A stretch of 64,000 nucleotides of DNA from Geosiphon pyriformis uo1 (Eukaryota > Fungi > Glomeromycota): positions 256,224-320,223 of the forward strand of contig JAAOMT010000201.1 in the NCBI GenBank assembly GCA_016748015.1, written 5' to 3'. The position numbers and the translations under genes are program-made. Position 1 is the first letter of the stretch; each line of letters opens with the position of its first letter. A model generated the notes under the pieces. It did no database searches. It had not been told where the DNA came from and worked only from the letters and a program-made list of their open reading frames with translations. Positions 3,974 to 58,091 of this stretch are shown here, in pieces.

Positions 3974-5446
3974 ACAGTAGTAATCAAAATCTTAATGGTA
4001 TTGGCAATTGGAATTTAAATTTTTCAAAATAATTGTTATAAGTTCCTAATAATTCTGCTTTCTTTTGTTTACTTTGAAATAGGAGTTGTCTAAATGTTGA
4101 TGTTGTATTTGATGTGGATGTGTCTGCTAATGTGATATTGATGGTACTTCCGGATATGTAATAATATGATGGATATAGTGGAAATTCAATTCTTTGTTTC
4201 TTTAATATTGGTAATTATATTCCTTTTGGAATTGCTGCTGGTGTTTGTAACTTTTTTTTACTCTTATTTGCATAGATAATGGGAAATTGTCGTTGAGTAT
4301 ATCTTTTAATTTCTTGAGTAATTTTCTTGATAATTGGTGCAAAACTGTGATTTTATGGTAAGCTAGTATATTGGATTAATTCTATATAGAAATTTTTTCT
4401 TGCTGATTTAATGTCAACTGGTCTTCCTAAAAAATCAGTGATTTTTTCATTGACATAAAAGTTGAAGGCTAATTCTGCTGAATAATAGTTGTTGGTTAAG
4501 CCTAATTGTTGGCTGTACTATTAAAATAAGGATTTGGTAAATCCTAAATGATTTGTTTCTATTATTTTTGATTCTGCTATTTTTGGATGACTGATGTTAG
4601 TGCTAGTTCTCTGTAAAATTATACCTTACAAGAAGCACCAAATATTACAGATGATTATTTGGAGTCTCAAAACAAATAACAAATCTATAACTTAATGTTT
4701 AATTAATTTAATGATATAGATCTCTGATGATTTTGTCTCTGGAGGTTTTCATGATTTGAAAATTTTGGTTGAGTTCTTTATATAATAAACAGAGATTTGA
4801 TAATAATGTTGCTGTTATTGGTAAGTTGTTTCCCAATTTTTTTTTTCAGCTTGATAACCAGTTTATTTTGGCAGTTATGCTCTTTAGTAAGCTATCCGTT
4901 AATATATATATAATATTACTCTTCTTTTAGATCTTTTATCAGGCTATCCATGACATTAATAATTCAGTGTTTAATCCTCAATCAATTAGTAAACACAACA
5001 AAATAAAATAAATAAATAAAAGAGATAGAGAAAAAATAAAGAAAATAAGCCAAGGCAATTGCAAATTAGTATCTTATTAATAGCCATAATCAAAAACTAT
5101 TGTTCTAGTATGGTCAAGTATCGATTACTATTAACACTTTATGTTAATAATGAAAAGTGGATTGAGATAACAAATAATTATTTATTGATAGTTTTGATTT
5201 GGAAGGTTGCTTAGATGAAATCTAAACTGAGATGTCTTGATAATGTTTTTTTCTGCTTTTAATACTCTTGCTATATATACATAATTTAGGTTCTACAAAA
5301 TCACTCACATTTTCGAATAATGTGCTATGATTTTTTGAATAATACTCACATTGCTTGAACAATATGCTCATATGCTAACTACTATTCTTTTATTGGTTTA
5401 TCTGTTTTTCTTACTATTTTTTTTCTCTGTTTTTCTATGAATAACA
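3974..5446 (-). mobile_element. Gypsy family A 5' end: LTR 4643-5446, PBS and decayed gag start 3974-4642
   Basis: LTR homologous to 46452-47328; PBS TGGTGCTTCTTGTAAG; gag remnant homologous to 55200-55690. Confidence 0.8.
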
Positions 5447-6984
5447 GCAAGAGTTCAATTAGAACTAACCATTTTTATCTCTATATTTTGTCCAGAAAAG
5501 AAATTTTATAAAAAAAAATTAAATATACTTCTCAAGCAGGATGTAAAAAAAAAGAGAGGAGAAAGAAAAAGGAGTGAAAAACTTGGATAGAAGACAAAAA
5601 CAATTATATACAATATACTTGGTCTTCAAGCTAGAAAAAATTAAAAAATCTTTAGCTTATGGGACTGAACTCTTCAAAACAGAGGAGTAAACACCAGACA
5701 ACACTCAAGAGTAAAAAAAAAGACTCCTTTCAACATATTGGTTTTACAAAATTGGGAAACAATTAGATTTAAAAAACCCATACAAAGACTACAACCAGAA
5801 AACTTTTAATAAAAAAGCAATATAACAAGTAAAAAAATTCGTAAAAAGAAGCAACCTGACACTATACTACAAAGCAATATGTTAATTATATGTCACTTTC
5901 CAATATTGTCCAAACATACTATTAAAAAAGACAACAGTCAACAACATAGGACAAATGACCAATCAACAGTTCAAAAATCTACAAAAAACTATAGTTAATA
6001 TAACCATTGAACATTACACAAACAAAGTTCTATTAACAGACACAACTGATTTTGCAAAAGCTCAATATTAAAAAAGAAGAAGATAATATTACTTGAAAAA
6101 AAAAAGCTTATTAAAAAAAGAAAGAAAAATGTGACCTAAAAAAAAATATAATAAAATATAAAAGAACACAGAATAATACACAATAATATTAGATAACACG
6201 TTATAACATAGAATAATGTGTTATAATACAGGATAATACAGAATAACATGTTATAATGTAGAATAATGTGTTATAATATAGAATAATTAGTTATAATATA
6301 AAAAAACAAAGTAATAACTAACAAGAACAAATGATCTAAAGCAATCCTGTAAAATTAGAAAATATGTATATATAGCAGTAGCATTAGAAACAGAAAAGAC
6401 AGAATTCCCAGACAAAAATTTATTAGTTACTATTCCCTAGTTAAAAACCATATTATTTTAAATATTAATAAATATATTATTCAGCATTTCAAATCCAATT
6501 GCTTATTATCAACTCTAAATGTTAATAGTAATTGATACTTAAATTACATGAGAACAATAGCTCTTGATTATAGCTATTAATAGGATACTAATTTGCATTG
6601 CCTTGGCTTAATTTTTTTTATTTTATCTTCTTTTATTTTTTTGTATCTTGTTGGTGGTTTACTAAACTTCTTAAAAATTAAGTATTAAGTTATTAATGTC
6701 AAGAATTGTCTGGTAAAAGACTCCTGCAAGTGGATAGAATGTGTAAAAATTAAGGATTGCTTACCAAAGAATTGCTGACCATCAAGCTGAGAAAAAAATT
6801 GATGGAATTGTGATTCCAGAAAGCTACAAATAAAATAACATGGAAATCTCTGTTCATTATACAAAAGATTCAATCAAAACCTTCAAAATGCAAAAATCTT
6901 CAGATTACTACCATTTCATATTAATTAAGCACCAAGTTATGGGTTTGTTATTTACTCTAACTATCCAAATAATCACTTGTAACA
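5447..6984 (+). mobile_element. Gypsy 3' end: ORF3 remnant (5447-6070), PPT (~6070-6086), 3' LTR 6087-6984
   Basis: ORF3 remnant matches 32280-32875; purine tract AAAAAAGAAGAAGATAA precedes LTR; LTR ends TGTAACA at 6984. Confidence 0.8.
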
Positions 6985-8190: not shown

Positions 8191-8616
8191 ACTGTATTTG
8201 GTTTTATATTATATAAAATTTAATAAAATTTTATTTTTTATTATAAATAATATATTAAAAACAGATGTATATTAGCCAATAAAATTTAATTATATAAATA
8301 AAAACACGTGAAGATCATCATTTAAAATTTCGGACTGATCTACATTTTTGATGATTATAAATGGTTTGCACCATAGTAATAAAATCATGGTAAATACCTA
8401 AATCTACTGCAGGGTAATTCCCATACTTAAATGAGCCCAGAAATGAGCAGTATATTTACGTTTTGATTGTTTACCTGCGATTTCATTTTCTCATGTAGTA
8501 ACAATACTTTTTTACACTTAACCGAGCACCTATCAGCATGACACATTTAGTATCTAAGATTGAAGCACTTTTATTAGAAGAGCCATTAGACAGTCTTTGT
8601 GGTGCGTCCGCAGTTT

Positions 8617-8636
8617 NNNNNNNNNNNNNNNNNNNN
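8617..8636. other. Assembly gap (20 N)
   Basis: Run of N. Confidence 1.
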
Positions 8637-8970
8637 CGGAAGAGCGATATCCTCTGGATGTCGAGAGTTTGCTCCTCCTTAACTGTGCGTGACTATCTGC
8701 CAAAACAGTGATATTTTTAAATTCTGAAAACGCACATGTGCGGGCGTAGTATATAAACAGATATAATGTGAGGTTGGCTTGTACCGGTACTAATTTATTA
8801 TTGCATTTGCCATAGATTTCAAGTGGTTATATCAGCATTAAAGGTCTGAAAGCATTCAAAGCATTGAATATAGAGAGGAAGTTACCCCCTGATTATAGCC
8901 ATGAAGAGATTGTGGCGAATATTAATATGTTAAAATACAAGCTCGAGGTATGTCTCAGATATTTTATCAA
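8637..8970 (+). repeat. Left arm of ~334-bp inverted repeat (partner 16642-16975); partial copy of the 5' exons of the gene at 15482-16984
   Basis: Reverse complement of 16642-16975 with about 4 substitutions seen by eye. Confidence 0.95.
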
Positions 8971-9791
8971 GATTCGTGGCCAGATTTTAGAATAATTCTC
9001 TTTGGGCTGAATCAGATAATCCTCTAGCTTATGAAATCCATTTTTTATGGAAGAGATAGCAGGTCTTTTTATACGTCCTTCTTTTGCTGATCCAAGGAGC
9101 CGAAGATTGAAATGCGTTTTGGGAAGGCCAACATCAATGAACTTTGAATAAGGATTAGTTCCATAACCTTTTCTGTGAATCCCTTAAGTTCTCTATAATC
9201 TATGAATTGGGCACGAGGATAAATAATATGCCAACTACATTTCTCAGCATTTGATGAACTAGCTAAAGCAAAAGAATTTAAGAAAGGCATACAATCTGGA
9301 ATAAGGCTTAATGCATCCGCACAAGCGACTAAAATTCGAGATAACAAATCTTCTCGTGTAATTTTTTTATCGTTTAAGGAAGGCACTTTAGGATTTGTAG
9401 GATCAGGCTTTTGCCTTGCATCAATATCAATAATCAAACGAAGAGGCTGGTTACCATCAATACATTCGTGAGTATCAGGTATTCTATAAACTTCAGAGGG
9501 ATGATTAACCAATGCAAACTTTTCTTTTATTCGAATTATATACTGAGAATAAATCTCTTCGGGCTGGTATGCATCTAAAAGTGCAGTATCATTTCTATCA
9601 GAAGAGCTGGTATGGCCATTGGATGCAAGCCAGTATTTATAATATGTATGCTCTTTATGGCCAGGTTTATCAAGATCCGTTAAACCCATAAAAAACCTTT
9701 TTGCTTCATTATATTCGGCCGACTTTTGATTTAAGCAGTGTTGTTGTAATGATTCATGAAGACATTTTTTTGCTTCACTAGACAAACTCAT
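8971..9791 (-). pseudogene. Archaeo-eukaryotic primase (PrimPol-like) domain, frameshifted and 3'-truncated
   Basis: Motif I LRLIIDID, motif II KCSWHII; after a frameshift near 9155 the other frame gives motif III PYSKFIDVGLPKTHFNLRLLGSAKEGR; cut off by the inverted-repeat arm at 8970. Confidence 0.8.
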
Positions 9792-9952
9792 TTTATTGAT
9801 TTCTATATATGTGTTGTTTGTATATGCGTGTTTGATCTGACAAAAAGTATGTATTACGTTGATTTATCAACTTATAATAAAAGCGACATAAAAAGTTTAA
9901 TTCGAAAATAATTATTTCATATATGCAAATTTGAAAGTTATTGTTATTAGTA

Positions 9953-10237
9953 ATGGCATTCTATTCTTGCCCACATACTTATATTGATGGGCGAATTTGT
10001 GGAAAAGGTAGTTATCGACAAGAGGGTTGTCCTCTTCATTGGAAAATGCGATTACGTAATCCTTGTAAAGAGTGTGGTATACCAACTGCCTCTATATATT
10101 GTATGTGTGTTAAACATGCTGGAAAATATCGCAACAAATCAAACTATCACAAAAAAAAGCAGGCTGAATTACGTGCAAAAATTGTTATGCTTGAGAATCA
10201 TATACCTGACTTACTCGATTCTAGACATGAAGTATAA
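9953..10237 (+). CDS. Small Cys/His-rich putative zinc-binding protein (94 aa)
   Basis: C-x9-C-x9-C-x2-H and C-x2-C...C-x2-H patterns, basic coiled tail; intronless, ATG at 9953. Confidence 0.65.
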   Translation: MAFYSCPHTYIDGRICGKGSYRQEGCPLHWKMRLRNPCKECGIPTASIYCMCVKHAGKYRNKSNYHKKKQAELRAKIVMLENHIPDLLDSRHEV

Positions 10238-10554
10238 TCATATATTGATTATTTTTTCCAGGACCTCTTATTTTGGAAAATGGCACTTATGTGCCTAAGT
10301 AATGTTATATCCTCTTTGATGCCTTCTATATTTTTGGTAATTTTATTAGGTAAAGCTATAGATTCCACGACTTTTGATTGAATTCGTATCTTGTTCGTGC
10401 CCATTTTCTGACAGAATTATAATAACCGCCACCCATTCAATTTTTTAGGTATTCTGACCCTAGATAATTAATTTCGATTTGAAAAAAGAATCTCCATAGT
10501 ATATATCAGACGAAAATAGTCTATATAAAACATCTCAATTAACATATACTAATC

Positions 10555-11655
10555 ATGGCAAAAATTGCTACATCATTTGTAAATCGCTATCATTTAACTT
10601 CACAAACTAGTTTACCACAGCTTAGTACTTATGTTGAAGAGTTAGCTAGTAAACTCTCAGATGGTAAGACAAAAGAGCAAGCTCGAAAAGCCAGAGATCA
10701 GGCCAAAAGACGCTTCCAACAGTTAGGATTGAGTAAGGAGCAAGCAGATACTCTTATTCCTATTCAAGCTCCTGGGAGACACGTTGAGGAAAGAGATCCT
10801 ATCAAAATTATCGCCCAATATATTATAAAAAATAATCTCTCACCTGAAGAGATAAATGGAATAGCATATGACTTGGCTTCTTCTGCTCCCACTGTTGCGG
10901 GAAATTCTCGTCTTAATTTATTACGGAAAAAGTTGTGTAGCTTAGGAGCTGACTATCTCATTACCGAGGCAACGAAAATACCTTTTATTACTGAAGAAGC
11001 AAATCAGATTCAAGCAAGAAAACGTATACTTCGTGGAATTAATGGTTATGATTGTCCCAAGTTCTTTTACCTGGAAAAAGTTCAGGAAAGACTTAATGAA
11101 TGTGATATTACCAAGCCTCCTTCAATGCAAAATCTAATAGACATAATGGTAATGCTATGTATGCGATCGGCAGATGTGGAAACTCTTCGTATCAATCGAT
11201 ACAGACCAAGTCGTGAGTCATGGTATAATCCTGACTATTCTTTGTATTGCACCGGTTATGCGAAAAATAAAGGTGAAGTAGGAGAACCCCGACCATTCCT
11301 CTCAATGGAAAAAAACCCAATACGAGCAAGAGAATTGCTTATCTGGATTCAGAAATCAATACCAGATAAATTTCCCTTCTTGTTAAAAGATAAGGATAGA
11401 AATACCAATGTTGTACCACTTAATCTATTCTTGAGTCGTCATAGAATTACCTCATATATGTTAAGAAAAATAGGTGCTGATCATGCTTCCAGAGTACATG
11501 GAGGTAAGAATGATTCTGGCCGTCAATATTTACGACAATTGGCATGTAGGCATAAGATAGGTCATGCTTCATCAGTTGAACATTATGGTGTAATGAATGA
11601 TAGGCCAATTATTTCAGTGCCTAAGCAAGAAAATCTCGAAGTCGAGGATAACTAA
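10555..11655 (+). CDS. Tyrosine recombinase, protelomerase/telomere-resolvase-like (366 aa, intact)
   Basis: Putative catalytic set R204 (MLCMRSAD), K237 (TGYAK), R304 (YMLRK), H333/H337, Y344 (SSVEHY); the GxAK and xxHY contexts resemble protelomerase GQAK and QLHY. Confidence 0.7.
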   Translation: MAKIATSFVNRYHLTSQTSLPQLSTYVEELASKLSDGKTKEQARKARDQAKRRFQQLGLSKEQADTLIPIQAPGRHVEERDPIKIIAQYIIKNNLSPEEINGIAYDLASSAPTVAGNSRLNLLRKKLCSLGADYLITEATKIPFITEEANQIQARKRILRGINGYDCPKFFYLEKVQERLNECDITKPPSMQNLIDIMVMLCMRSADVETLRINRYRPSRESWYNPDYSLYCTGYAKNKGEVGEPRPFLSMEKNPIRARELLIWIQKSIPDKFPFLLKDKDRNTNVVPLNLFLSRHRITSYMLRKIGADHASRVHGGKNDSGRQYLRQLACRHKIGHASSVEHYGVMNDRPIISVPKQENLEVEDN

Positions 11656-12062
11656 TCACTCTATCACTTTTATCATATTCACAGTAAAATCTTTATCATC
11701 ATTGGATGATTCAGACTCAGACCCAGATGAAGATGAGGACCAGATGCGGTATCATTTAAAATTTTCTTTTTTCTTTTAGCCTTAGATGGTGTACAATTTC
11801 TTCGAGAAATATCGAGGTTTACTATCGCATTTATAATATCTTGCTGAATCTTGGGTTTTACTATCTCCAGTAATCGGTGAAGAGAGATCCAGATTTTTTT
11901 ACCCGCCACTTGCTTAATAATACTGGATACCACCCTATAATTATTCTGAGATTCGTGGCTATTTCCAATAATTTCCACTCCCAATTTTTTAGCAAATTCT
12001 TCGGTTATAGTTGACCAGTTAGTGCTTGAATCGATAGTAGGTTTAGTTGTTGTTGATGACAT
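11656..12062 (-). CDS. Hypothetical protein, probable frameshift near 11740
   Basis: ATG 12062; basic KAKRKKK stretch; alternative frame ends SSSSGSESESSNDDKDF..* at 11656, tail-to-tail with the recombinase stop. Confidence 0.5.
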
Positions 12063-12203
12063 AATATTATTTATTAATACGAATAAAAATACATTATTAA
12101 ATATAAAATTATAATAAAGCATCACGATGAGAATTTTATCTTGCGAAATTAACAAAGTACCAGTTAAAACTATATTAGATACGTCTGAAATAGCAAATAT
12201 ATA

Positions 12204-12671
12204 ATGAGTTATAGCAGAGTACGAGATAGGTTAAGTGAATATGGTGTAAATTATATTGTTAATAATATTAAAACATCAGAAGCATGGTTACAGTTTGCAA
12301 AATATTATCCACCAAAGTATGTACGCAAGCGTTTATTAAAACTAGGATATGAAATAGATAATAGAGATTATTGGGAAAATTTTGTATTTCGTATCAAAAA
12401 TAATTTAACCAGCCACAAGCAAATAGGTAATGACCCTAAATATAGGGATTTTAAAGTTCAACTAGCATTATATAAAAAAAATTGTGCGTCATTAATTATC
12501 CAGAAGACATATCGTTTATGGAAAAAACAAATTAATTCAGCTAAAATAATCCAACATGCAGTAATTGAATGGCTTTATAGACCTGGTGGATCATTTATGA
12601 AGCAAGCCAAAGATCGATATTATCAAAATTCGAATAAGCTCCATCATAATAGCATTGGGAGTAAACAATAA
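12204..12671 (+). CDS. Hypothetical protein with two IQ-like motifs
   Basis: ASLIIQKTYRLWK and SAKIIQHAVIEW followed by LYRPGG; intronless 155 aa. Confidence 0.65.
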   Translation: MSYSRVRDRLSEYGVNYIVNNIKTSEAWLQFAKYYPPKYVRKRLLKLGYEIDNRDYWENFVFRIKNNLTSHKQIGNDPKYRDFKVQLALYKKNCASLIIQKTYRLWKKQINSAKIIQHAVIEWLYRPGGSFMKQAKDRYYQNSNKLHHNSIGSKQ

Positions 12672-12887
12672 CGAAATATACCTTAAGGAACACTTCCTCT
12701 ATGGATTGTTTCGTGATAATCAGTTAAAAGCCAGAAGATGTGGAACAGACCTGTCATTAGATGAGCTGGTTGCAAAGTTAAGCGTGATTGAGAATATCAG
12801 AAAAATAAATGATATATGCGTCTAAATTAATTATCCGAACATTAGCTGTTTTTTTCGATTAAAGATATATAATATACATTTTTGAGA

Positions 12888-13700
12888 ATGGCGCAACTAT
12901 TGCGGAGCAATGACCCAAAGGGTCTAAATATTTTTGATTTACCAGAATTGCTAGAACAGATCTTATATTATTTAAAAATTGATCGATCCCTCTATCCCAC
13001 TTTGTTTGTCAACCACTTTTGGTATCACTGCGGTGCTCCTATTCTATGGCATCGCGTTGAGTTTATTAACAAAGATTATCAGCAGAGTCGACGTCCCTTA
13101 AATTTGTCTCGGGTTCTTACTCGACGATTGATAAACTTTGAAAAAATTATATGTAGAAAAATAAAGCCACTCTATTGTTCAAAGATGGTATATCTCAGAT
13201 TAGAAGGTTTAAAAATCTCAGATGCATTGATCAGTGCAATTTTGCATTTATGTCCGAATATATGCTTTCTCATTCTTGATAAAATTGCGAGATTTTCTCT
13301 GAAACTACAGCATCTGAGTCTTAATTCATGTATATGTCTCACTAATCGTTGCATCACTGAAATTGTTCGCTCATGCCTAAAACTTAGACATCTTGAGCTT
13401 GGTGATTGTTTGATTAGTAATAAAGCTGTCGAAGAAATAGCCCACAACTGTACTAATTTGAAATATCTTAGTTTGGAGGGATGTAAAGGGATTAACAAAG
13501 AAGTAATAAAAAAATTCAATCCAAAAATTAAAATCGAATATCCTGATTATTCAGATGATTTACATACTCTATTTCCCACTGGCATAATAATTGGAACGAA
13601 TTTTATTCCTGCATTTAGAAATTATATAGAGATTAGCAGAATTAATCCTAATCATTCATCGTGGATCACAAATAATTTTATTTATAATATACATCATTAA
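12888..13700 (+). CDS. F-box / cysteine-containing LRR protein
   Basis: F-box-like LPELLEQILYYL..LFVNHFW..GAPILW; LRRs LQHLSLNSC, LRHLELGDC, LKYLSLEGC. Confidence 0.85.
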   Translation: MAQLLRSNDPKGLNIFDLPELLEQILYYLKIDRSLYPTLFVNHFWYHCGAPILWHRVEFINKDYQQSRRPLNLSRVLTRRLINFEKIICRKIKPLYCSKMVYLRLEGLKISDALISAILHLCPNICFLILDKIARFSLKLQHLSLNSCICLTNRCITEIVRSCLKLRHLELGDCLISNKAVEEIAHNCTNLKYLSLEGCKGINKEVIKKFNPKIKIEYPDYSDDLHTLFPTGIIIGTNFIPAFRNYIEISRINPNHSSWITNNFIYNIHH

Positions 13701-13789
13701 ATAATATTACAGGATGCATATTATTTTGACTATAGAAGAATAGAGGAGGTAATCAGGTATTCGACAGCCTCCAGCTAATTTTAAAGAAT

Positions 13790-14464
13790 TTATTTGCTGT
13801 GATGTATATATATCTGTGATAATTTTCCTTGTTTTACTTTTGATTCTAGACATGGGCACTGATTGTTGCTAGTAGATTTTTTGACGAAAATTTCATGCAA
13901 TTGTTGAAGAGTGACATTCGGAAACAATGGTAGTCCCTCACCAGTAAACCAAAATTTCTTTACCCCTCTATCAACGAATTTTTTTATTAGCATACCTGGA
14001 TCATCTTCTAAGGGACCGTGGAATTTCTCAAACTTTCGGAGGTACACCCTTGCATGTTTATTGGCTTCTTCTGCCATTTCTTGATTAGTATAGCCAACAA
14101 TACCGATTTTTTCCTGAATTGTCGCTATATCGTCTTCTAAGCATAAAAGCAAATCAAATAATCTAATTGGTTTATCTGAAGAGACTTTATCCCTTCTAAG
14201 TTCTGCTTCTAAAACGGGATTGATATCTATACCAAGTTTCCCCTGTATAGGTATTAAATCCCCCACCAATTCTAACAACAATTCATATGAATCAGCATGT
14301 TTTTTCGCTTTCTTGCTTTCCGACACTGCCGTTTGATTTATATTACTGTTAATAACAAGTTTTTTCTGAATAGCTGTTATATCCTTTTTCTTATATAAAA
14401 ACACTTCGTATAATTGAAGAAAATTTTCACTTGGATCAGTTTTATTATTAGTATTACTCGTCAT
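13790..14464 (-). CDS. Hypothetical protein (224 aa)
   Basis: Open ATG-initiated intronless ORF with repeated DI(T/A)xIQxKL/IG helical motif. Confidence 0.6.
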   Translation of the reverse strand: MTSNTNNKTDPSENFLQLYEVFLYKKKDITAIQKKLVINSNINQTAVSESKKAKKHADSYELLLELVGDLIPIQGKLGIDINPVLEAELRRDKVSSDKPIRLFDLLLCLEDDIATIQEKIGIVGYTNQEMAEEANKHARVYLRKFEKFHGPLEDDPGMLIKKFVDRGVKKFWFTGEGLPLFPNVTLQQLHEIFVKKSTSNNQCPCLESKVKQGKLSQIYIHHSK

Positions 14465-14804
14465 GATTGTTATAATATGGTAATATAATTAATGCGGAAA
14501 ATAACGCATAAATATAAAAATTAAGTGAATATAGCAAATTCAATCTGAAAATAATTATAACCACATCGTAACTGCGAAATTACATCACGTTATAATGAGC
14601 CTCAGGGGAGCGATGTCATGTGTTTTAAATCCGCGAATCAGAGATCAGCATAGAAGTTCATGGAACATGCCAATAAAAAGCCCCTAATGGGTCATAATCT
14701 CATATATTTACACGAAAATCTTTATTTAACAAGTGATTATCTGATATATTTACATTTTAAAACCGCTAACTCTATATAATTATTTTTGCTATATAAGTAT
14801 CGAA

Positions 14805-15478
14805 TTATATCCCATAGGGTAGTGGATCCTCTGCTTTCAACCCACGTCTGGCACGCGATAAATCTGTAAAGAGTAACGATTATAAATAGCGATTTTTTAG
14901 CAATACATATAATACAATGAAAAGATTAACACGAACGTACTAGCCCATGTGAAATAATTACTTACCAATATTTCCTCGTCTTTTATCGCAAGATCTTTCT
15001 GGTATCTTGGTTTGACTTTTTTTCGGTTGGGAGAGTGTAATTCGGTTATTCAGATCTCGTACATCATTGAGATCTTGCCGAGGAATCGAAGAAAAAACAA
15101 ATCCACGTGAATCCCTCTCAATGCCGGCCTCTAGATCTTCGTATATCGACGAAAAATCGCGCAGATGATGGAAGAAGGTACTGTGAACAAAGTAAACAAT
15201 ACTGTGCCGGATCCCTCGAGTTATGGGAAAATTTCCATGAAGGAGAAGACGTGAGGAGAAAGCAACGATTTGTCGGGGCGAAGCGGAACGACAATCTGGA
15301 GTTGGGGGAACCATAATTCGCCTCCCTCGAAATCACCCAATGCGACTGAACAACAAAGAGAATTTGGCTCGTCATGTTCATCCCAATGAAAGTCACTTAT
15401 TGTATTGAAGTTAATCGCGATCATAGGGAAGACTCCGAATGACCTTGGCGCAAATGCTCCCCATTCTAGCTTTAGCAA
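14805..15478 (-). pseudogene. TET/JBP-like 2OG-Fe(II) dioxygenase, 5'-truncated and frameshifted
   Basis: HxD (FHWD), GDFEGGELWFPQL, then after a frameshift near 15274 H (LLHGN) and RxS (RHS); GT-AG intron 14965-14864 restores the last exon DLSRARRGLKAEDPLPYGI*. Confidence 0.7.
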
Positions 15479-15481
15479 TTT

Positions 15482-16984
15482 TTAAAATGGAGATGAAACA
15501 GTAGGACTCGGGTGTATATTTCGGGGTGGATGAGTATTAGCTTGTTCTAATGCCTGTATTAGTAAGCTATTATTAACGATCATGACGTTTCTTAAGGTCA
15601 ATAGTAAGCGAACGAGAGCTTTAGTATTCGATGCGTGTGGTGATAATGGAATTTCAGCGTTATCAAGATGGAAATATCTTGGTATACCACCCAGATCCTT
15701 CATAAGAACATTTAATCGCATAGTAGTGCCAGCTATTTGTATTCCAACAATCCCAAATTGATTGCCAACCGGTCTACACAGCGCATCCACAAAGCTCACT
15801 CCATCTAAAGTCTCTCTCCACAATTTCACATCATCATCCGTTTTCTTTGAATTACTACATAAAATACGTGAAGATTCAACATATAATAATTCTAAAAATT
15901 TGTCACCCCATTTCAACAGTCCCATAATGTCAGGTTTCTTTCCCATTCGTTCTCTGACTGCTCCTGCATTTCGTTGAGCCTTACTTGCTAGGCTCTGTCG
16001 TTCTGCTGTACTTAAACAGATACTACCATTATGTAGGTCCCCTAAACTCGATCGGAGCAAAGGCAGTATAATATCCGAAATATATGTTCCTTCACTTTGC
16101 TCACTACGTGATATACTCATGAATACTGGGTTACTCCATGTTTCACCACTAATGAAAAGTAAATTAGAAATATTAAAAAAATTTGCACTTCATAGACTGT
16201 ATAGCACTCTAATACTAACTGCTGAAGAATCAAAATAATACTTACAGTACACCAAGAATTCGTTCACTAGTTTCCACCAACTTATGTTCGCTTTCTTTCC
16301 ATTTTTTGTTATGAAAAATATTTCTCGTGGCTTGTGAAGTATTCGAGTTATTAAACCTACCCACAAATTCATCACACATCCTTGTAACCGATTCAGGGAT
16401 ATCGCATTTCATATTCTCCCGCGGTTCCAAAAAAACTTTCTTTTGCCTGCGCCCCAAATTTTTTATTAGGCCCGAATCGTCGGTAAGAATCATATTCGCT
16501 TTGGGATCTTGCCACGTAAGTTCTGACGGATTTATATGTTCGAGAGCTTGCCTAAGCGCTCCGTAAAGATTCGCATCAATTTCTGATCCGGGATGCTTAA
16601 TATACAAGTTCATTAACTTTCGGACAAAAGAATACCTCACTTTGATAAAATATCTGAGACATACCTCGAGCTTGTATTTTAACATTTTAATATTCGCCAC
16701 AATCTCTTCATGGCTATAATCAGGGGGTAACTCCCTCTCTATATTCAACGCTTTGAATGCTTTCAGACCTTTAATGCTGATATAACCACTTGAAATCTAT
16801 GGCAAATGCAATAATAAATTAGTACCGGTACAAGCCAACCTCACATTATATCTGTTTATATACTACGCCCGCACATGTGCGTTTTCAGAATTTAAAAATA
16901 TCACTGTTTTGGCAGATAGTCACGCACAGTCAAGGAGGAGCAAACTCTCGACATCCAGAGGATATCGCTCTTCCGAGCTGGCAT
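15482..16984 (-). CDS. Spliced gene (~400 aa) with C-terminal PD-(D/E)xK restriction-endonuclease-like domain
   Basis: Predicted exons 16984-16928, 16796-16665, 16595-16246, 16148-15482 join in frame with GTGCGT/GTATGT/GTAAGT donors and AG acceptors; motif KKPD..ELLYVESS..DDVKLWR. Confidence 0.65.
16642..16975 (-). repeat. Right arm of ~334-bp inverted repeat (partner 8637-8970)
   Basis: Direct reverse-complement match. Confidence 0.95.
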
Positions 16985-16994
16985 TCCCCAACCT

Positions 16995-17013
16995 CTGTCT
17001 CTTATACACATCT
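16995..17013 (+). other. Nextera/Tn5 mosaic-end adapter sequence (assembly contaminant)
   Basis: Exact 19-mer CTGTCTCTTATACACATCT at an abrupt composition boundary. Confidence 0.97.
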
Positions 17014-18178
17014 ATGAGATTTATATTTTTTTATAGTATATTTTACTAATTTTCTATTAAAACCTTTTCTATAAAGATTCATATAACACCAATATTTTCT
17101 TGAAAATTGTCTAATAGTTATTAAAAATACTAATTTAAGACTTTTAAACACTGTTCTTTGTAATTTTTTTCATAAATAATTTTATTTATTATATGTATAT
17201 CTTTTAGTAACTCCCTAATATCTTTTAATAAAATTTAATTTACAATAAAATTTTGAAAAAAAATGTATTTATGTCTTATACTTTCAATTAATTTTTTAAT
17301 TGTATTTTTTTGAGTAAAAAAATCAGATTCCAAAGATATTACTTAACATACATAACAAAAAACTTTTGAAAAATTTTTGATTTTTTTTTTGCATTTTTAG
17401 CATTGTTACAGATGATTATTTGGGTAGTTAGAGTAAATAACAAAGCCATAACTTGGTGCTTAATTAATATGAAATAATAATAATCTGAAAGTTTTTGCAT
17501 TTTGAAGATTTTAATTAAGTTCTTTGTATAATGGACAGAGATTTCCATGTTATTTTATCTGTAGCTTTCTGAAATTACAATTCCATCAATTTTTTTTTCA
17601 GCTTGGTGGCCAGCAATTCTCTGATAAGCAATTCTTAATTTTTACACATTCTATCACTTGCAGGAGTCTTTTATCAGGCAATCCTTGATATTAATAACTC
17701 AGCACTTAATTTTTAAGAAATTTAGTAAACCACCAACAAGATACAAAAAAATAAAAAAAGATAAAATAAAGAAAATTAAGCCAAGACAATACAAATTAAT
17801 ATTCTATTAATTGTTATAATTAAAAGCTATTGTTCTCATGTGGTTTAAGTATTAATTACTATCAACATTTAAAGTTAATAGTGAGCAATTGGATTTGAGA
17901 TGCTAAATAATATATTTATTAATATTTGAAATAATATGATTTCTAACTAGAGAATAGTAATTAATAAATTTTTGTCTAAGAATTCTGTCTTTTTTGCTTC
18001 TAATGCTATTGCTATATATATATATTTTCTAGTTTTACAAAATTGCTTTGAATTGTCTGTTCTTGCTAATTATTGCTTTGTTTTCTTACATTATAACTAA
18101 TTATTCTATATTATAATACATTATCCTATATTATAATATATTATTCTATATTATTCTGCATTATAATACATTATTCTA

Positions 18179-19513
18179 CAAAGAGGTATAAAAAGTATTG
18201 GACACTTAATATAATATATAAAAAAAGCTATATATAGTAATACCATTACCAATTTAAGCCATAATTTTTTTTATAATTACTTATAGTTATAATCTACAAA
18301 TCAACATAAATCACATCCTTGTAAAACACAACAGTGGATTATATGCATATATATAAAATATCAAACATTCTTGTTGTGAAAAAATTTACCACATCAAATG
18401 TGTCTTGAAAAAGAACTTTCTAAATACCAAAAAGGAGAAATTATTTTAGCAATAAAATTAAAACATACAAACAGTAAGATTTTCACGACTATTAGATGTT
18501 CATGTTCTTCTGTAATACATATATGGAAGTCATACAAGCTAAAAAAACTTCTTAAAAAACGAATGGGCCAATCACAAATTCTTGACAAATGCATACATAA
18601 ACAACTTAAATATTCAATAATGGAGAATAAAGAAACCTACTGCCAAACTTTTTCTCAAATATGATTGAATTTTATTAAAGATACCAATAAATCTATTTCT
18701 ATACAAACTATTCGAAATGGATTAGCTCAAGAAAGACTTCATTTGTGCATTCCTTGTCTCAAGCCATTAATTTCTAAATCAAATAAAGAAAAACATTTAT
18801 AATAGGCTTGTACTTATGAAAATTGGACAGTAGAAGATTTTAAATGAGTTGTTTGGTCAGATGAATCTACATATACACAATTTAGAACTACAGAATTTGG
18901 ACATATATGATGTAAACCTTCCAAAGAGTTTCATAAGGATTGTATTGCAGCCATAGTTAGAAAAAACTTTGGTCACATGTTTTGAGAATGTTTTTCATGG
19001 GTTGGTTTGGGTCCTTTATTTCTTTTGGTTGGTCATATTACTAGAGTTATACACCATGAAACCTTGGTTAATTATGCAATTCCTACAGTAAAACTTCATG
19101 CAAAAAAAACTAAAAAAAAGTTTTTTTTTCAAGAAGACAATACATCAATCGATACATCAAAAGTTGCATGTTCTTTTCTTACTTCCTTGGCCAGCACAAA
19201 GTCCTGATATTATTCCAATAGAAAATTTTTGGTCATATATTGAAGTTAAAATTAGTTAACATAATTCACAACTCTCAAATATTGTACAATTAGAACAGTG
19301 GGTTAAGGAAGAATGGGATGCAATACCTGTAAATTACTATCATAATTTAATCAAGTCTATGCCATGTCAAGTTCAAGCTATTCTTGAAGCAAATGGGGGT
19401 CAAACAAAATACTAACATGTATTTTAATATAATAATAAAAAATTAACAATTCATAAGTTAGTTCTTTTATATAACATATTATAAAAGTGTCTAATACTTT
19501 TTATACCTCTCTG
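18179..19513 (+). mobile_element. Tc1/mariner DNA transposon (1335 bp)
   Basis: ~29-bp TIRs CA(A/G)AGAGGTATAAAAAGTATT(G/A)GACACTT; TA TSD (18177-78, 19514-15). Confidence 0.95.
18398..19415 (+). pseudogene. Tc1-family transposase, degenerate
   Basis: N-terminal HTH region, VVWSDES, FQEDN, WPAQSPDIIPIENFW, ANGGQTKY*; stops and frameshifts. Confidence 0.9.
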
Positions 19514-21426: not shown

Positions 21427-24400
21427 TGTTACAGGTGATTATTTGGGGTCTCAAATCAAATAACAAACTTGTAACCTGGTGCTCAAAAGCTATTTCTGAT
21501 AATGGTGATCTGAAGGATTGTTTGTTTGAAGGTTTTGGTTGTTGAGTTCTTTGTATAATAGACAAAAATTCAATAGTAGTTTATCTGTAGCTTTCCAGAA
21601 TCACAGTTCTGTCAATTTTTCTCTCGACATGGTGGCCGGCAATTCTTAATGTTAATAACTTAGTGCTTAATCTTCAATCAATTAGTAAAACAAAAAAGTA
21701 ACAACAATAAAAGAAAATAAAACAAAGAATAACAGAAAATAAAAAATAAGAAATCAGCCAAGGCAATGAATGTTAGTAATTCATCAATAGCCATGATTAA
21801 GAGCTATTGTTTCAGTGTGATTAAGTATTAATTACTATCACCATGAAGTGTTAATAGTGGAGAGTGGATTGAAATGGTGATTAATTATTTATTAATATTG
21901 TGAATGAAATGTTTTTAACTAAAGAATTCTTTCTTTTTTACTTCTAACATTATTGCTATATATACATAATTAATGTTCTACGAAATTGCTCACATTCTTG
22001 AGCAATGTGCTATGATTTCTTGAACAATGTGCCCTAATTTTCTAATATTGCTCCACATTGCTGAGTAATGTATTGTGTTTTCTGACATTGCTCTATATTG
22101 CTGAGCAATGTGTCGTGATTTCCGTTATTGCTCTATATTGCTAAGCAATGTGCTTACATGTTAAATGCTATTTGCTTATTGGTTTACTATTTTCCTATAT
22201 CTGTTTTCTTTTTATGAGTAACATTATCTTCTCCTTTTTAATATTAAGCTTTGTTGAAATCTTCATTTTGAATTAGCTCTAATACTTTTTTTTCTAGTAT
22301 TGTTTATTTAACTTTATTTTTCACATCTTCTTCTTGTACATTGTTTATTCTTCCCCATTGGTTAATAGTTATAGTTTCCATGTCAGAGTATAACAGTATT
22401 TCTAGATAGTTTTGAAATATGTTGTGCAGTTGGTAAATTGTTCTCACATATAGTGTTGAGTTTGTTTTTTTTCCAATAAATTCTTCAATTTGCTGTATTA
22501 TGTTTTGGTTAAATATTCTCTTAAATTTGTCAATATACAACTCCTGAATATTCAACTTTCAACCTAACTAATAGTAATAATATGATATTGAAAGTTGTTC
22601 TGTCTATTGCTTCCAATTCTTTTTTGTAAGTTCTTTTGTTGGTGCCATAATAGATATTTTTCTAAAAGTGTTCTTTACTTTTTCTATTATGTTATTTGAC
22701 CAGTTTTTATATTTCTTTGGTAACCACTGATATAATGTATTCTTTGTCTTTCTTTTGGTGTTTCGATAGCAAATTGTTTGATTATTAATAATAATTTCCA
22801 TGTCTAATGATTGCTGACTTAATGTCTGGAATAATTGTTGAGCTATGGTGTAAATGTGATCTGGTATTTCCATTTTTTTTTCTTGGTTGCTTTTGTCATG
22901 TATACTGTGTCTTTATATATTCTTTTATTATTCAATTTTACATGTTTGGTTTAATGATTATGATTGGTTCCAGATCTTGTGGAATCTTATCTGATTGGAC
23001 TAGTATTTGTTGTACTCCCAATTGTAGAATATTATTGGTGGATGATGATGCTATTTGGTAATATGGTTTCAGTTGATTATCATGTGCTGCTTTGGCTAAA
23101 ATTTTGTTGTCCCATCTTAATTTATAAGCTCTATTTCCAAGAATTTCTTCTATGTGAAATGGACCATCCTATTTGGGGTCAAATTTTCCACTCCATTGTT
23201 TTTCTATTTTGGTATGATGTAAAAGTACTTTGTTTCAATCTTGAATTCAACTGGTTTATCTGGTAATTGGTTATTGTGTCATTCTTTTTGCTTTTTTTGA
23301 GACTTTTGGATATTATCAGCTGTTTTTCGTCATTTGTTTTCTAGTGTTTCCATTAAGTCATATGTTCTTCTTAACAATGTTTCTTGGAAATTGGCTTCTG
23401 TTATTGGTTCAGTTAGATATGTATTGACCTCTATCTCAATTGGTAATGTTGCTGTTTTTTTATATACTAATTCAAATGGTGTTGCTTGTGTAGTATCTTG
23501 TCTTATTGTCCGATAAGCAAATAATACTGATGGTATAAACAAATCTCATTCATCTTGGTTTTCTTGACTGATTTTGGCAATTGCTTCACATAATGTTTTA
23601 TTGAATCTTTTAACTAGTCTATTGGTTTGTGAATGATATGATGATAATAATGGTCTTTTTATCTCAAATCTTTGACTTAGTTCTGTCAATGTTTTATTTA
23701 TAAAATGAGTTTTTTGATCTGATAGTAGTTTCTTTGGACATCCATGTTAACAGATCAAATCTTGATAGATGATGTTATCTGAGTAGAAAAACCAATCCAA
23801 AGTTATAAAGAAACATAACATAACACAGAATAGTGTAATAATGTTGGATAATGTGTTATAATGTAGGATAACATGTTATAATACAGGATAACACAGAATA
23901 GCACACAATAACGTAGAATAACATGTTATAACACAGGATAACACAGAATAATATGTAATAATGTCAGATAACATGTTATAACATAGGATAACTAGTGATA
24001 ACGTAGAAAAACAAAGCAATAACAGAAATAACAAAGCAATAGCTAGTGATAGTGAGACAATTGAAAGCAATCCTGTAAAACCAAAAAAATGTATAAAAAA
24101 CAAGTAGTTATAGAAGTTAGAAAAGACAGACAGATAGATAGATATAAACCTTTAGACAAAAATTAAATATCCATACCCCTTCATCATTTATTATCCTCCC
24201 TATTTTATCTTCTGAAATAAACGAATTATTAAAGAAATCAGAGTCACAAATTCATGTTCTTGAACTTCATGGAATTTATGTGAATTAACTCTTGTCTCGT
24301 ATTTTCATTCTAGGACAGATGCTCTTAGCATAACCATCTCGAATGATCAATGATTTGGACCAATCGCTCTTGATCATAGCGATTGACAATACTAATTTAT

Positions 24401-32875: not shown

Positions 32876-35800
32876 AAAGAGGAGGATAATATTACCCAAG
32901 TAGAAAAACCAATCCAAAGTTATGAAGAAACATGACATAACACAGAATAGCGCAATAATGTTGGATAACGTGTTATAACATAGGATAATGTGTTATAACA
33001 CAGGATAACAAAGAATAGCACGCAATAACATAGAATAATGTGTTATAATACAGGATAACACAGAATAACATGTAATAATGTCAGATAATGTGTTATAACA
33101 TAGGATAACTAGCAATAATATAGAAAAACAAAGCAATAACAGAAATAACAAAGCAATAACTAGTGATAGCGAGACAATTGAAAGCAATCCTGTAAAACCA
33201 AAAAAATGTATAAAAAGCAAGTAGTTGTAGAAGTTAGAAAAGGCAGACAAATAGATAGATACAAATCTCTAGACAAGAATCAAATATCCATACCCTTTCA
33301 TCATTTTTCTCCCTATTTTATCTTCTGAAATAACCAATTATTAAAGAAATCAGAGTCATAAATTCATGTTCCTAAACTTCATGGAATTTACATGAATTAA
33401 CCCTTGTCTCATACTTTCATTTTAGGACAGATGCTCTTAGCATAACTGCCTCAAACAATCAATAATTTGGACCAATCACTCTTGATCATGGCGATTAATG
33501 ATACTAATTTATCTTTTCTTTCTTATTTTTTTTGTGGAGTGGCAACATAGTAAAATTGACTGTCTGAGAATAGACTTCATGATAGCCTGGTAAAAGAGGG
33601 AAGCTCCCTCTAAGTTTTGAATATTAACATTATCTTGTTAGCTTACCAGAAGGGTGAAAAAACAATGCCAGACTTTAATGATTGCACTCATTAGCTCGGA
33701 GAAGAAAGCTCACATTTACGGAAAACATTGTAATTAATGAAAAACAAACTCTGTGCCTTATAACAAAAGAACTCAATAGGTAAATTCACATTCAGAAATA
33801 GATCTTTAGAGACTAATAATCAAGACTAAGCCAACAAAATTATGGTAGAAGACATATCATTAATAATTGAGAGCACCAAATATTATCATTTCTCATACCC
33901 ACCAAGTTTATCCATAACAACAAATTCAGCAATGAATTCTGCATCTGCTCTTTGAATGGCTTTTGCTTCTGGCCATTTAATGAGATAATCTATAGCTACT
34001 ACAATGTATCTGTTGCTTCTGCTAGTAATTGTTAATGATCCAACTAAGTCAATTCCAATTTGATCAAATAATTGTCCCACTTTGATTGGTCTTAATGGTT
34101 TACTTAGTCTTATTCCACCTCTTCTCTAACAAGCATTACAATTCTAAACATATTGGATGATGTCTGGATACATTAATGACCAATAGTATTTTTTTCTGGT
34201 TTTTTCTATGGTTGTTTCTTTATGAAAATGTCCTGTTGCTGGATCTGAGTGCATGTTAAACAGTATTGTTTCTTTTTCAGGTTCTGTAATTACTCTGGTT
34301 GGTTGATTTGGATTTCTTTGGTTTTTCTGGTACAGTATATTTTGATAATTGATAAAATATTTTAATTGCTGTTTTATGTTGTTTTGTTCTTTTTAAGATA
34401 ATTTCTCCTTAAACAATTGGGTATTTATATAATGTTGGAGTTGTTGGTATTTTTGTATATTTATTTTTTGTTATATTTTTGTGTTGAAATGTTTTTAGAT
34501 TTGTTTTATTCGTGACAATCCATCAGCATTTCTGTTGTCTTTTCCTTTTTTATAATGTACTGTATAATTGAATAGTAAAAGTTCTATTTTCCATCTGACA
34601 TGGCAGTTGTCTCTGAATTCTTGTTTCTGAATTGAAGTCCATCCTTTGTGATTAGTATACACCTCAAACTTTTGGTTTAAGTATTCTCTCCATTTGATAA
34701 CAGCCCAATAGATTGCTAAGTGTTCTAGTGCTGAAGTTTTATAGTTCTTTTCAGCTGGACTTAAGCTTCTACTGGCATAAGCTACTGGATGTTCTTTTTC
34801 ATCTGGTTTTTTCTGTGATAGTATGGCTCCTAATACTTGGCCTGATGCATTGGTGGTAATGATAAATGGTTTGTTGTGGTCTGAATACATCAACACTGGA
34901 GCTTAAATAAGCTTCTGTCTCAGTGTGTTAAATGCTTTTTGTTGAGCTTTTGTCCATTCATACTTGACATTCTTAGTTTGTAGATAATAAAGCAGCTGAG
35001 CCAGTTTAGAAAAGTCCTTGATAAAACAATGATAGTAGTCTGCAAATCCCAAAAATGCTCTTAATTCCATCAAATTGGTTGGTACTGAAAAGTTCTTTAC
35101 TATGGCAATCTTATCTGAATCTGTTTTTATACTATATTTGCTTACAACATGTCCCAAAAACTTGAGTTCATTTTTTTCAAAAAAATATTTAGTTGCATTT
35201 AGTTGCAATCCGGCTCTTCTGAGTCTTTCAAATACTTGTTAGAGATAATGCAGATGATTATTGAATATTTTTGAGAACACATTGATATCATCCAAGTATA
35301 TGACTACTGATTTTCATAACAGTCTAGTATAGAAAATACCCATAAGCCATTGAAATATTGCTGGAGTATTTATTAAGCCAAATAATATTACTTCAAATTT
35401 GAAATTCTCTTTTTGTGTAGTGAAAGCTGTTTTTTCTTTATCTTCTGGTTTTATAGCTACTTTCCAGTAACTGCTGTCTAGATCTAATGTTGAGAATCAT
35501 TTTTTTCCTCCAAAAGTGTCAAACAGCTCTTGAATCTTTGGAGTTGGGTAGCTGTCTCCTTTTGTTACTCCATTCAATTTCCAGTAGTTTACACAAAAAC
35601 GGATTTTTTCATTTTTCTTCTGGACTAGTACCACTGGTAATGACCATGGGCTCATTAATGGCTGAATTAGCCCATTGTCAAGCATTTGATTGATTTCTTG
35701 ACGAATGATTTTATGGCTGGCTGGTGGTACTCTGTATGCTCTTTGTTTAATTGGCATTGTATCTCCAGTCTTGATTTGATGTTAGATAATATCAGTTCTG

Positions 35801-37359
35801 CCAAATTCGTTTTTGCTGGCAAAAATGTCATTGAATTTGTTGAGTAACATTTTTAGTTGCATCTGCTGAAGTGAGTCTAGATTCCCTATATTCATCTGTT
35901 CCAATTGTTCTGGTTGGAGCAGATAACATTCACTTTGTCCATAGATGGTTTGTGATGTGATGTCTACATATTCACAAAGCTGTGGAAAATCTGGAATATG
36001 GTTTGGTAGTTGATCTTCAACTTCAGTGGTTAAATATCCAATGATGGTTTTCTTTGGTATTTCAATGACATTTTCCATTGTATTATAAATGGGAATTTTG
36101 ATGTTTTTTGGGCTTTTGGCTGATATGTAAAAATTAGTGAGTCCAATCTCTCCTGATTCACAGATGGTGGCTTCTGCTTCAAACAGCTAAGCTTGATCTT
36201 TCACTTCTCTTTTTATGGCTAATATATACTGGTCATATGGTGAAATAGAAATTGATTGACAGGTTGAGATAATTTCTTCTTTGTCAATAACCTCTTCTTT
36301 TACCATATTAATTGGTATATCTATTCTATCTGTTGATCTGAATCCTTGTATCTCTCTAGCAGTAATCCTTAATTCTTCCCTGTTTCCCATTGACATTAAG
36401 TTAGCTATTTTCACCAGAGGTAGAAATATTGCCTGTGCTATCTTTTCATTTGGCTCTATCATGTAGGCCTTTTCTGAGTTATTTTGTAGCATGGCAATAA
36501 TATTTCCTACATATCCTGCATCAATTATTTCTTCTTTGATGTTGATTCTCTTTTTGGATAAACTACTTCTAGATGTTAACTGAACTATTGTTGTTGCTGG
36601 AATTTTCAATGCTATTTTGAGATCAATGCAGGTGTGTGAATGAAGTTCTAATTTTATGGTATCTTTTCCTGAATATCTTAAATCAAATTCTGCATCAATA
36701 TCATGCACACGTTTTAGCATGATACCTTCATTGTTATCACTGAATTATTTCAGTTTCTGCTCTTTGGTAAAGTCAGAAAGTGCAATAAATGTTTCGGGGT
36801 TTGAATTAGAGTCCGAATTGTTGTTATTTCTATTGGCATTTTGAGCAGAGCTAGAACTGTTATTTTTATTGTCATCATTGTTGGAGTTTGAATCGGGATT
36901 GAAACTTGATCCCGATTGTGATATGCAGCTGTTTATTGGTTTGTCCTCTTCTGGAATTGTGTAGATTATGCATGGTAGTGAATTGTAAATGAGGTCACAC
37001 TCATTACAATATTGGAAGTTACAGAGAATCAAACAGTGGTCATATAGTTGAGTGTTGATTTCTTCCAAGCATTGCTTCTGCTCTTTTCTTGTAAGTGTTA
37101 GCTCTTGATAGTGTTTGTGGAATTGTTCTGGATCCAACAGATTTATGACTAGTTCTGGGTTTCAGTTAAGTTCTATGGGTTCAAGTGAGTTATATTTAAT
37201 TGTTTTTATTTTTTCTGGTGATGCTTCTTCAATTTTAGTGAGTGCCATTTGCCAAATTTTGTCATCATCATGTGGACATCCATCCAAACATTTGACTGCT
37301 CATTTCCAGGTGGCATCTATGGGTGTTTTCTTTTTCACCCAGTCGCTTATGAAAATCAT

Positions 37360-57584: not shown

Positions 57585-58091
57585 CTGTCTTTCTAACTTC
57601 TATAACTACTTATTTTTATATATTTTTTTGTTCTATAGAATTGCTTTTTAATTGTTTTGTTCTTACTAGCTATTGTTTTGCTATTTCTGTTATTGCTTTG
57701 TTCTTTTATGTTATTACTAATTATTTTATGTTTCAACTAGTTATTTCATACTATAATATATTATTGAGTTTTATATTATGTTATCCTAAGTTATTATATA
57801 TTATTCTGTGTTTTTTTACATTATCCTATGTTATTTTATGTCATTATGTTTTTGGTTACATTTTTTTCATAACTTTGGATTGGGTTTTCTACTTGGGTAA
57901 TACTGACCACCATGCTGAAAAAAGAAATTTATAGAAAAAACTATCAATTAAATCTCTGTTTATTATACAAAGAATTCAACCAAAACCTTCAAACTCCAAA
58001 AACTTTCAAATATTACCAACATTATTAACTATTGAACACCAAGTTATGGGTTTGTTATTTGTTCCAACATCTCAAATAATCACTTGTAACA
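57585..58091. repeat. Remaining halves of two split LTRs: family-B-like U3 (57585-57902, minus) and family A U5 (57903-58091, plus)
   Basis: 57585-57902 matches the reverse complement of 32890-33245; 57903-58091 ends CACTTGTAACA like 6984. Confidence 0.75.

Follow-up and report, generated by a model that had tools for sequence, protein, structure and literature searches.

A Glomeromycota tyrosine recombinase resembling protelomerases by predicted structure, encoded beside a primase-helicase in a multi-copy element

Certain bacteria and the phages that infect them carry protelomerases, as do a few giant viruses of algae. An open reading frame in the fungus Geosiphon pyriformis raises the question of whether this branch of the tyrosine recombinases extends into the Glomeromycota and, if so, what such an enzyme would do there. 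The window (the whole 64,000-nucleotide stretch analysed) carries the gene within a 7.7 kb gene cluster and otherwise consists largely of nested Gypsy-type retroelements. A preliminary description had read the gene as an intact tyrosine recombinase that looks more like a protelomerase than a Crypton, DIRS or Starship enzyme.

10555–11655, + strand: tyrosine recombinase, very probably of the protelomerase branch; one open frame of 366 amino acids

The single 366-residue frame is indeed intact, and R204, K237, R304, H333, H337 and Y344 sit where they had been placed, in the contexts TGYAK (residues 233–237), YMLR (301–304) and SSVEHY (339–344). A protein search returned 107 relatives at E ≤ 0.001 and a profile search returned 528 representatives, of which the best 150 were considered. 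In a 31-row alignment spanning approximately 30–90% identity, R204 is kept in 30 rows, G234 in 29, K237 in 28 (with Arg in one more), L303 in all 31, and R304, G307 and R332 in 30 each; position 333 is His in 25 rows and Gln in six, and Y344 is found in 28 (three gaps). The tyrosine-recombinase residues R, K, R, H/Q and Y are therefore present in order in 28–31 of the 31 rows, and their conservation is well beyond chance. The predicted catalytic set is R204, K237, (Y301), R304, H333 and Y344. Both histidines named in the preliminary description exist, but position 337 is His in just nine rows and H333 is thus the likely catalytic residue. Similarly, YMLR does replace HxLR in this protein, but its Tyr is private to it: across the family, the first position of the HxxR motif (301) is Lys in 15 rows, Ser in 11, Arg in three, and Tyr and Gly in one each. 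It is His in none of the 31 rows, which bears out the claim of a missing first His as in TelN; the equivalent residue is Lys in TelN and Tyr in TelA and ResT.

The catalytic spacings of the fungal protein (R–K 33, R–H 29 and H–Y 11) are close to those of TelA, for which the available text of PMC3558466 gives the catalytic residues R255, K286, Y363, R366, H394 and Y405 and spacings of 31, 28 and 11, respectively. The H–Y spacing had been put forward as short and protelomerase-like. This was mistaken: the distance is 11 here and in TelA and nine in lambda Int, Cre and TelN, so that it is neither short nor diagnostic. Position 337, which lies four residues after the catalytic His in the manner of D398 of TelA, is Asp in none of the 31 rows; Asp residues are scattered over positions 335–339, where the alignment is gappy.

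By sequence comparison, the family is nearer to the protelomerases than to the integrases, yet is not a close member of the former. No Pfam family was matched by the recombinase (P0001) or by sets of 38 and 16 family rows; PF16684 (ResT-TelK_cat) gave no match to P0001 or the family rows, and DUF3504, DUF3435 and Phage_integrase gave none at E ≤ 0.1–1 in any of the three. A PHROG search returned no named family for the recombinase, the PDB sequence search returned no true match (best rows unrelated, E ≥ 0.038), and HMMER sequence–profile scores of the family against the comparison sets of 28 protelomerases and 13 integrase/Xer/Cre sequences were all noise (<9 bits). HHalign alignment of the 31 family rows with the 28 protelomerases gave a probability of 80.6 (E = 1.3e-5, 203 columns), in a register that pairs R204 with R275 of TelN, GYAK with GQAK, R304 with R383 and H333 with H416. 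The probability against the 13 integrase/Xer/Cre rows was 0.2, and 20 block shuffles and reversed family alignments stayed below 0.5. The profile comparison suggested at the outset thus splits, with no Pfam match to integrase, DUF3435 or PF16684 on one side and an HHalign preference for protelomerases on the other. The integrases themselves, however, reach probabilities of 55–76 against the protelomerase profile, so that such a score shows kinship and not membership; the family scored 1.9 against the phage subset alone and 9.6 against the cyanobacterial protelomerase subset alone. The lysine motif G-Y/F-x-K aligns with the GQAK of TelN, and the proposed GQAK-like context holds in the form of a G-x-x-K in register.

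The likeness to protelomerases is one of predicted structure. A confident model was obtained for residues 76–352 (71 sequences; pLDDT 92.9, pTM 0.86), with residues 1–75 outside it and without an assigned fold; an earlier full-length model was poorer (pLDDT 75, pTM 0.50). The 76–352 model has two domains, folded as in TelA and connected by a long linker helix at approximately residues 143–163. When it was compared with 48,161 chains using VIA-align, TelA ranked first (Z of 15.9, r.m.s.d. of 3.8 for 261 aligned residues) and TelK second (Z of 14.0, r.m.s.d. of 4.2 for 259), and the ResT catalytic domain scored 8.4 (r.m.s.d. of 4.1 for 140). The best non-protelomerase was SroF (Z of 7.7), and lambda Int (Z of 7.5, r.m.s.d. 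of 6.3 for 217), XerA (6.7) and Cre (5.9) scored lower. In Foldseek, seven matches reached E ≤ 0.001, six to TelA and one to TelK; TMq rises to 0.69 for these protelomerases and does not exceed 0.48 for Cre or lambda Int. The tyrosine recombinase/DNA breaking–rejoining superfamily accounts for the top 11 VIA-align rows and for every significant Foldseek row, in agreement with the fold assigned in the preliminary description. The check that it proposed, structure prediction and Foldseek against TelK, TelA and ResT, put protelomerases on top, and TelA and TelK lead the integrases, Xer, Cre and topoisomerase IB by a wide margin.

The large gap in Z is owed mostly to the way in which helical domain, linker helix and catalytic domain are placed relative to one another, as in TelA and TelK; for the catalytic domain alone, ResT (8.4) and SroF (7.7) are effectively tied and the margin is small. 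With the full-length model, VIA-align still favoured protelomerases (TelA 11.0 and 10.7, TelK 10.2, ResT 8.9; best other recombinase 5.8), whereas Foldseek did not separate TelA (E = 0.014) from Cre (E = 0.017). A search of a viral structure library with this poorer model gave no significant match, with a phage integrase best and the EhV-86 telomere resolvase third (E = 0.06). Taken together, these comparisons make protelomerase-branch ancestry well supported.

The same data bear on the possibility that the enzyme is a topoisomerase-IB-like swivel or concatemer resolvase that aids the primase-helicase encoded beside it, with neither stable hairpins nor integration. Lys is the usual residue at the first HxxR position in topoisomerases (PMC3558466, in the part available), K-x-L-R is the commonest form of the motif in the family, and the linkage to the replication gene is tight. 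However, topoisomerase IB chains score only 5.0–5.5 in VIA-align (poxvirus 5.5) and are not the best structural match, and the G-x-x-K spacing follows that of TelN. We consider a swivel unlikely.

All relatives that carry organism names come from Glomeromycota genera, and some lie on contigs of several megabases. Nine divergent members, picked by eye among the best 150 of the 528 representatives and mostly GC-rich in appearance (P0167, P0176, P0191, P0221, P0223, P0227, P0229, P0240 and P0241), form one side of a branch with support of 96/94 in a 33-row tree, in which they sit on long branches that call for caution. Most of the nine lack the first ~75 residues, and five (P0176, P0223, P0227, P0229 and P0241) derive from ENA/Logan contigs of 5.6–22.5 kb. 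Searches with short exact patterns, which are weak for distant relatives, found no member in viral contigs (three queries) or in 50,697 phage records, none in 301 cyanobacterial genomes (no positive control) and no relative of the primase-helicase in viral contigs. Among the matches listed in full-text literature searches, from which subscription journals are mostly absent and supplements excluded, none describes protelomerase-like proteins of Glomeromycota. The family appears to be undescribed and is carried by a widespread Glomeromycota element.

The content of that element was assessed in the window and in a metagenome scan of 80 of 117 loci, mostly 1–3 kb in length.

8970–9791, − strand: broken primase-helicase, N-terminal ~280 codons; frameshift at ~9153–9156 and cut at the inverted arm
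9896–9907, − strand: one-mismatch copy of the upstream motif, ~115 nt before the primase-helicase start
9953–10237, + strand: short zinc-finger-like ORF rich in Cys and His, between the primase-helicase and recombinase genes
10472–10483, + strand: conserved motif TTT(C/T)GA(A/T)TTGAA, a likely promoter element, upstream of the recombinase
11682–12200, − strand: recurrent element gene downstream of the recombinase, in 8 of 80 loci
12888–13700, + strand: F-box/LRR cargo gene; 7 of the 11 loci with ≥1 kb of flank have it downstream
13793–14464, − strand: recurrent element gene, in 3 of 80 loci
14961–15481, − strand: 2OG-Fe(II)-oxygenase-like remnant in two frames; Tet_JBP E = 0.09, below cut-off
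15485–16796, − strand: gene X, intron-containing; one open frame after removal of two introns seen in spliced contigs

The most telling neighbour is the primase-helicase. In the window it stops at about residue 310 of a homologue of at least 785 codons; its N-terminal part is presumably an AEP-type primase, judging from its motifs and the source's own label. Longer homologues carry a Herpes_ori_bp (UL9-type) helicase domain above the Pfam cut-off (PF02399, E = 2.8e-22 in locus L012 and 5.1e-12 in locus L029). Among the 11 loci whose flank reaches 1 kb or more, eight have a primase-helicase upstream of the recombinase and nine have the zinc-finger-like ORF there. Counted over all 80 loci, the primase-helicase is upstream in 10; its orientation varies, and each of the three main fungal subfamilies has it. 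Of 44 loci whose flank is long enough, 42 have the upstream motif at 59–117 nt before the recombinase start; the motif has 57 matches in 167 kb versus 6–21 in 20 shuffles, a count that is partly circular since the motif was first seen on aligning the window with 18 of these loci. As a copy also precedes the primase-helicase, the motif is read as a shared promoter. It was considered as a telomere site and rejected, its symmetry extending over just 11–13 bp and a copy preceding the primase-helicase.

Gene X has what we take to be a PD-(D/E)xK-like motif, and a second intron-containing cargo gene with such a motif occurs at 10976–11779 of L029; neither gene has a Pfam match, and both motifs presumably resemble Crinkler-type nuclease domains. 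L029 also encodes a retropepsin-like protein, a RING protein and, upstream of the recombinase (4461–5027), a 2-cysteine adaptor ORF (PF08793, E = 0.001, below cut-off) whose family, present in ten of 80 loci, may be a trace of descent from a large DNA virus. Pfam recognized no capsid or packaging gene in the ORFs of the window or of L029, the loci being incomplete. No reverse transcriptase or RNase H was found in the ORFs of 8637–16994 or in the scanned ORFs of L029; the reverse transcriptase genes of the window belong to separate Gypsy-type elements. Three copies of Gypsy-type LTR elements have a dUTPase domain in or before pol (36187–36720, 42131–42595 and 49570–51957), and 10 bp-period arrays recur in the LTR-element repeats (6123–6338, 18040–18198, 23828–24053, 32925–33170 and 57690–57878). 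The right retroelement arm is interrupted at 18380–18661 by a fragment that we take to resemble a Tc1/mariner transposase.

Given this module, the reading that we favour, at about even confidence, is that the enzyme serves as hairpin-telomere resolvase to a mobile element that replicates itself and is now present as many integrated copies in mycorrhizal fungal genomes. The element likely has, or had, hairpin-capped ends. We infer every step of the mechanism beyond the fold. The primase-helicase would open an internal origin, replication through the hairpin ends would produce a palindromic junction, and a dimer of the enzyme would cut this junction via Y344 and reseal it as two hairpins. Integration might then be due to the enzyme running in reverse, fusing telomeres or recombining junctions as reported for ResT, or to host repair. 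The TelA and TelK fold matches, the HHalign register with TelN, the missing first His, the TelA-like spacings and the upstream primase-helicase all point in this direction. Brown-algal endogenous phaeoviruses, in which a telomere resolvase and fold-back reads at a telRL-like site are described in the accessible part of PMC13236599, offer a eukaryotic precedent.

A hairpin-telomere resolvase should act on a palindrome, and the outcome of the search for one counts against this reading. A scan that recovers the telRL of N15 found no telRL-like palindrome with at least ten pairs per arm in 8501–17100 of the window. The 80 loci contain 19 short palindromes of at most 36 bp, none common to several subfamilies or conserved near the gene, the element ends being mostly not captured. 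Contigs (not long reads) of four runs contain no strand-switch joints over 8640–17300. In L029, two tandem imperfect palindromes of ~55 bp (93–153 and 175–233; 16 bp arms, 23 nt AT-rich spacer) lie at the contig start, ~160–300 bp before the primase-helicase, together with short direct repeats. No other locus and no viral contig yielded the pair, and L029 has no end-to-end repeat. These palindromes are a candidate origin or telomere site; we take them to resemble a UL9-type origin as much as a telomere site.

The same absence of a tel palindrome favours an integrase of protelomerase descent, that is, a former telomere resolvase whose present role is to move the element out of and into DNA through Cre-like strand exchange. 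No second integrase was seen in the module, which leaves this enzyme as the sole recombinase in a multi-copy chromosomal element with copies on megabase contigs. Loss of D398 shifts TelA towards recombination, and one or a few substitutions turn it into a recombinase (PMC12270096, from the text available); at the equivalent position, none of the 31 family rows has Asp. Polinton-like viruses (PLVs) may provide a parallel, as their end modules combine a recombinase and a primase-helicase next to inverted repeats, for which excision and insertion have been proposed (PMC11296320, in the portion available). The small margin of the catalytic domain alone, the integrase scores against the protelomerase profile, the lack of a PF16684 match and the phage integrase at the head of the viral library also weigh against a resolvase. 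On the other hand, the predicted interdomain layout fits TelA and TelK much better than any tetrameric recombinase, the linker helix of TelA and TelK blocks a straight DNA path (PMC3558466, as far as its available text goes), and no att-like site or target duplication has been shown. Conversion to an integrase is thus a realistic possibility that we hold tentatively.

The state of this copy raises the further question of whether the gene is active at all, and here the assembly has to be considered.

8637–8970, + strand: left inverted arm, duplicating the 5' part of gene X; identical to the right arm at 330 of 334 bases
16642–16975, − strand: right inverted arm, the native 5' part of gene X; pairs with the left arm
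16995–17013, + strand: presumed Tn5 mosaic-end/Nextera adapter sequence; one match, none in 100 shuffles

The sequence at 16995–17013, which we take to be the Tn5 mosaic end/Nextera adapter, marks a false assembly join: contig X1 continues for 241 nt beyond 16994, unlike the window. A run of Ns at 8617–8636 lies at the outer edge of the left arm, and the assembly is unreliable outside 8637–16994. The outer inverted repeats (7919–8129/17011–17221 and 6209–7171/17217–18178) were accordingly rejected as element termini, as they lie beyond the N gap and the adapter; the inner arms were rejected because the 334 bp pair is a duplicated piece of gene X.

The inverted duplication itself is probably real. 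The left arm, with four differences from the right, is joined exactly at the cut primase-helicase; DNA-run contigs cross both arm junctions by 30 letters (threshold 31), although the run may be the window's own source; and in spliced contigs of two samples, the left arm runs on into antisense sequence of the primase gene. The spliced contigs X2 and X3 were taken as RNA from their GT–AG joints and a poly(A) end. A chimeric spliced transcript (8816–9450, + strand, intron at ~8946–9051) runs from the gene X 5' duplicate into antisense primase-helicase sequence and, in one run, ends in poly(A). The window lacks the first exon of gene X, which means that the true arms extend further. Contig depth over the right arm (16642–16994) is 46 versus 78–90 in the spacer, the opposite of the two-copy expectation. 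An arm–spacer–arm arrangement is the expected remnant of a palindrome with an asymmetric central deletion, as after hairpin-end replication; template switching yields the same arrangement, and it is therefore given little weight.

As its primase-helicase is broken, the copy at 10555–11655 is probably non-autonomous. Of three neighbours described as frameshifted, the primase-helicase and the 2OG-oxygenase-like gene are indeed broken; gene X merely has introns, and the F-box/LRR gene matches its homologues in one frame. The only spliced contigs over the recombinase (10504–11407, − strand) carry a CT..AC intron at 10991–11070 in two samples, which implies an antisense transcript across the gene, possibly for silencing or regulation. 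The broken neighbour and this antisense transcript would both suit a relic or domesticated gene, an old viral insertion fragment that has been passively duplicated and has no current enzymatic role, as would the count of loci with an open gene: of 44 that span it completely, just 15 have a single frame free of stops. Against a relic stand the catalytic residues kept across subfamilies at 30–40% identity, the preservation of the upstream motif and a CpG observed/expected ratio of 0.92 in the element versus 0.19–0.23 in the flanking retroelements, which suggests recent arrival or an absence of methylation decay. A relic or domesticated gene of this kind is very unlikely.

More broadly, if the enzyme is a hairpin-telomere resolvase, the elements might form a new class of mobile DNA in eukaryotes, linear and capped by hairpins, which replicates itself with a primase/UL9 helicase and a protelomerase in Glomeromycota and other hosts. 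One enzyme would both cap the ends and fuse them into chromosomes, the cargo would be F-box/LRR and nuclease-like genes, and chromosomal palindromes like the arm–spacer–arm arrangement would be left behind. We regard this wider proposal as speculative and rather doubtful. With a large fungal family, the protelomerase branch would reach into the mobile DNA in the nuclei of arbuscular mycorrhizal fungi, whose transposable elements are about two-thirds unclassified (PMC11075540, in its available text), and many 'hypothetical' genes would gain a function. Hairpin formation by the enzyme would point to an unseen linear replicon or fungal DNA virus and add a new enzyme, from a eukaryote, to the known hairpin cappers; integration would make it a natural example of a telomere resolvase turned recombinase, a change so far shown with TelA mutants.

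Among known systems, Glomhopper (a DUF3504 CryptonA element of the same phylum), Starship (DUF3435) and DIRS/Ngaro elements also use fungal tyrosine recombinases, but the present family has no DUF3504, DUF3435 or Phage_integrase match and its module has no reverse transcriptase. The text available for PMC13465315 assigns Glomhopper to DUF3504, a different family, and does not mention a protelomerase, primase or helicase; that available for a Rhizophagus viral region (PMC10640383) does not mention a recombinase, integrase or resolvase. Polinton-like viruses share the adjacent tyrosine recombinase and primase-helicase genes (PMC11296320), but their helicases are described as D5-like in the accessible sections of PMC11296320 and PMC7805220, whereas the fungal helicase is UL9-type (PF02399); moreover, no capsid or packaging gene was recognized in the window or L029 and no relatives were found in viral contigs. 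The telomere resolvases of phaeoviruses and coccolithoviruses (Ectocarpus EVEs, EsV-1 and EhV-86 Q4A292) are likewise protelomerase-type genes in eukaryote-resident or integrating DNA. These giant viruses have a separate tyrosine integrase (PMC13236599, in the part available), whereas the fungal element seems small, with variable host-like cargo and one recombinase. The closest counterparts are Agrobacterium TelA (PDB entries 4dwp and 4e10) and Klebsiella phage TelK (2v6e). The fungal protein differs from them in its 9–14% identity, the lack of a PF16684 match and of a conserved D398 equivalent, and a fungal nuclear context with a UL9-type helicase and no target palindrome found; its predicted helical DNA-binding domain, linker helix and catalytic domain nevertheless superpose on theirs over approximately 260 residues, with the catalytic R, G-x-x-K, non-His-x-x-R, H and Y in register and the same H–Y spacing as in TelA.
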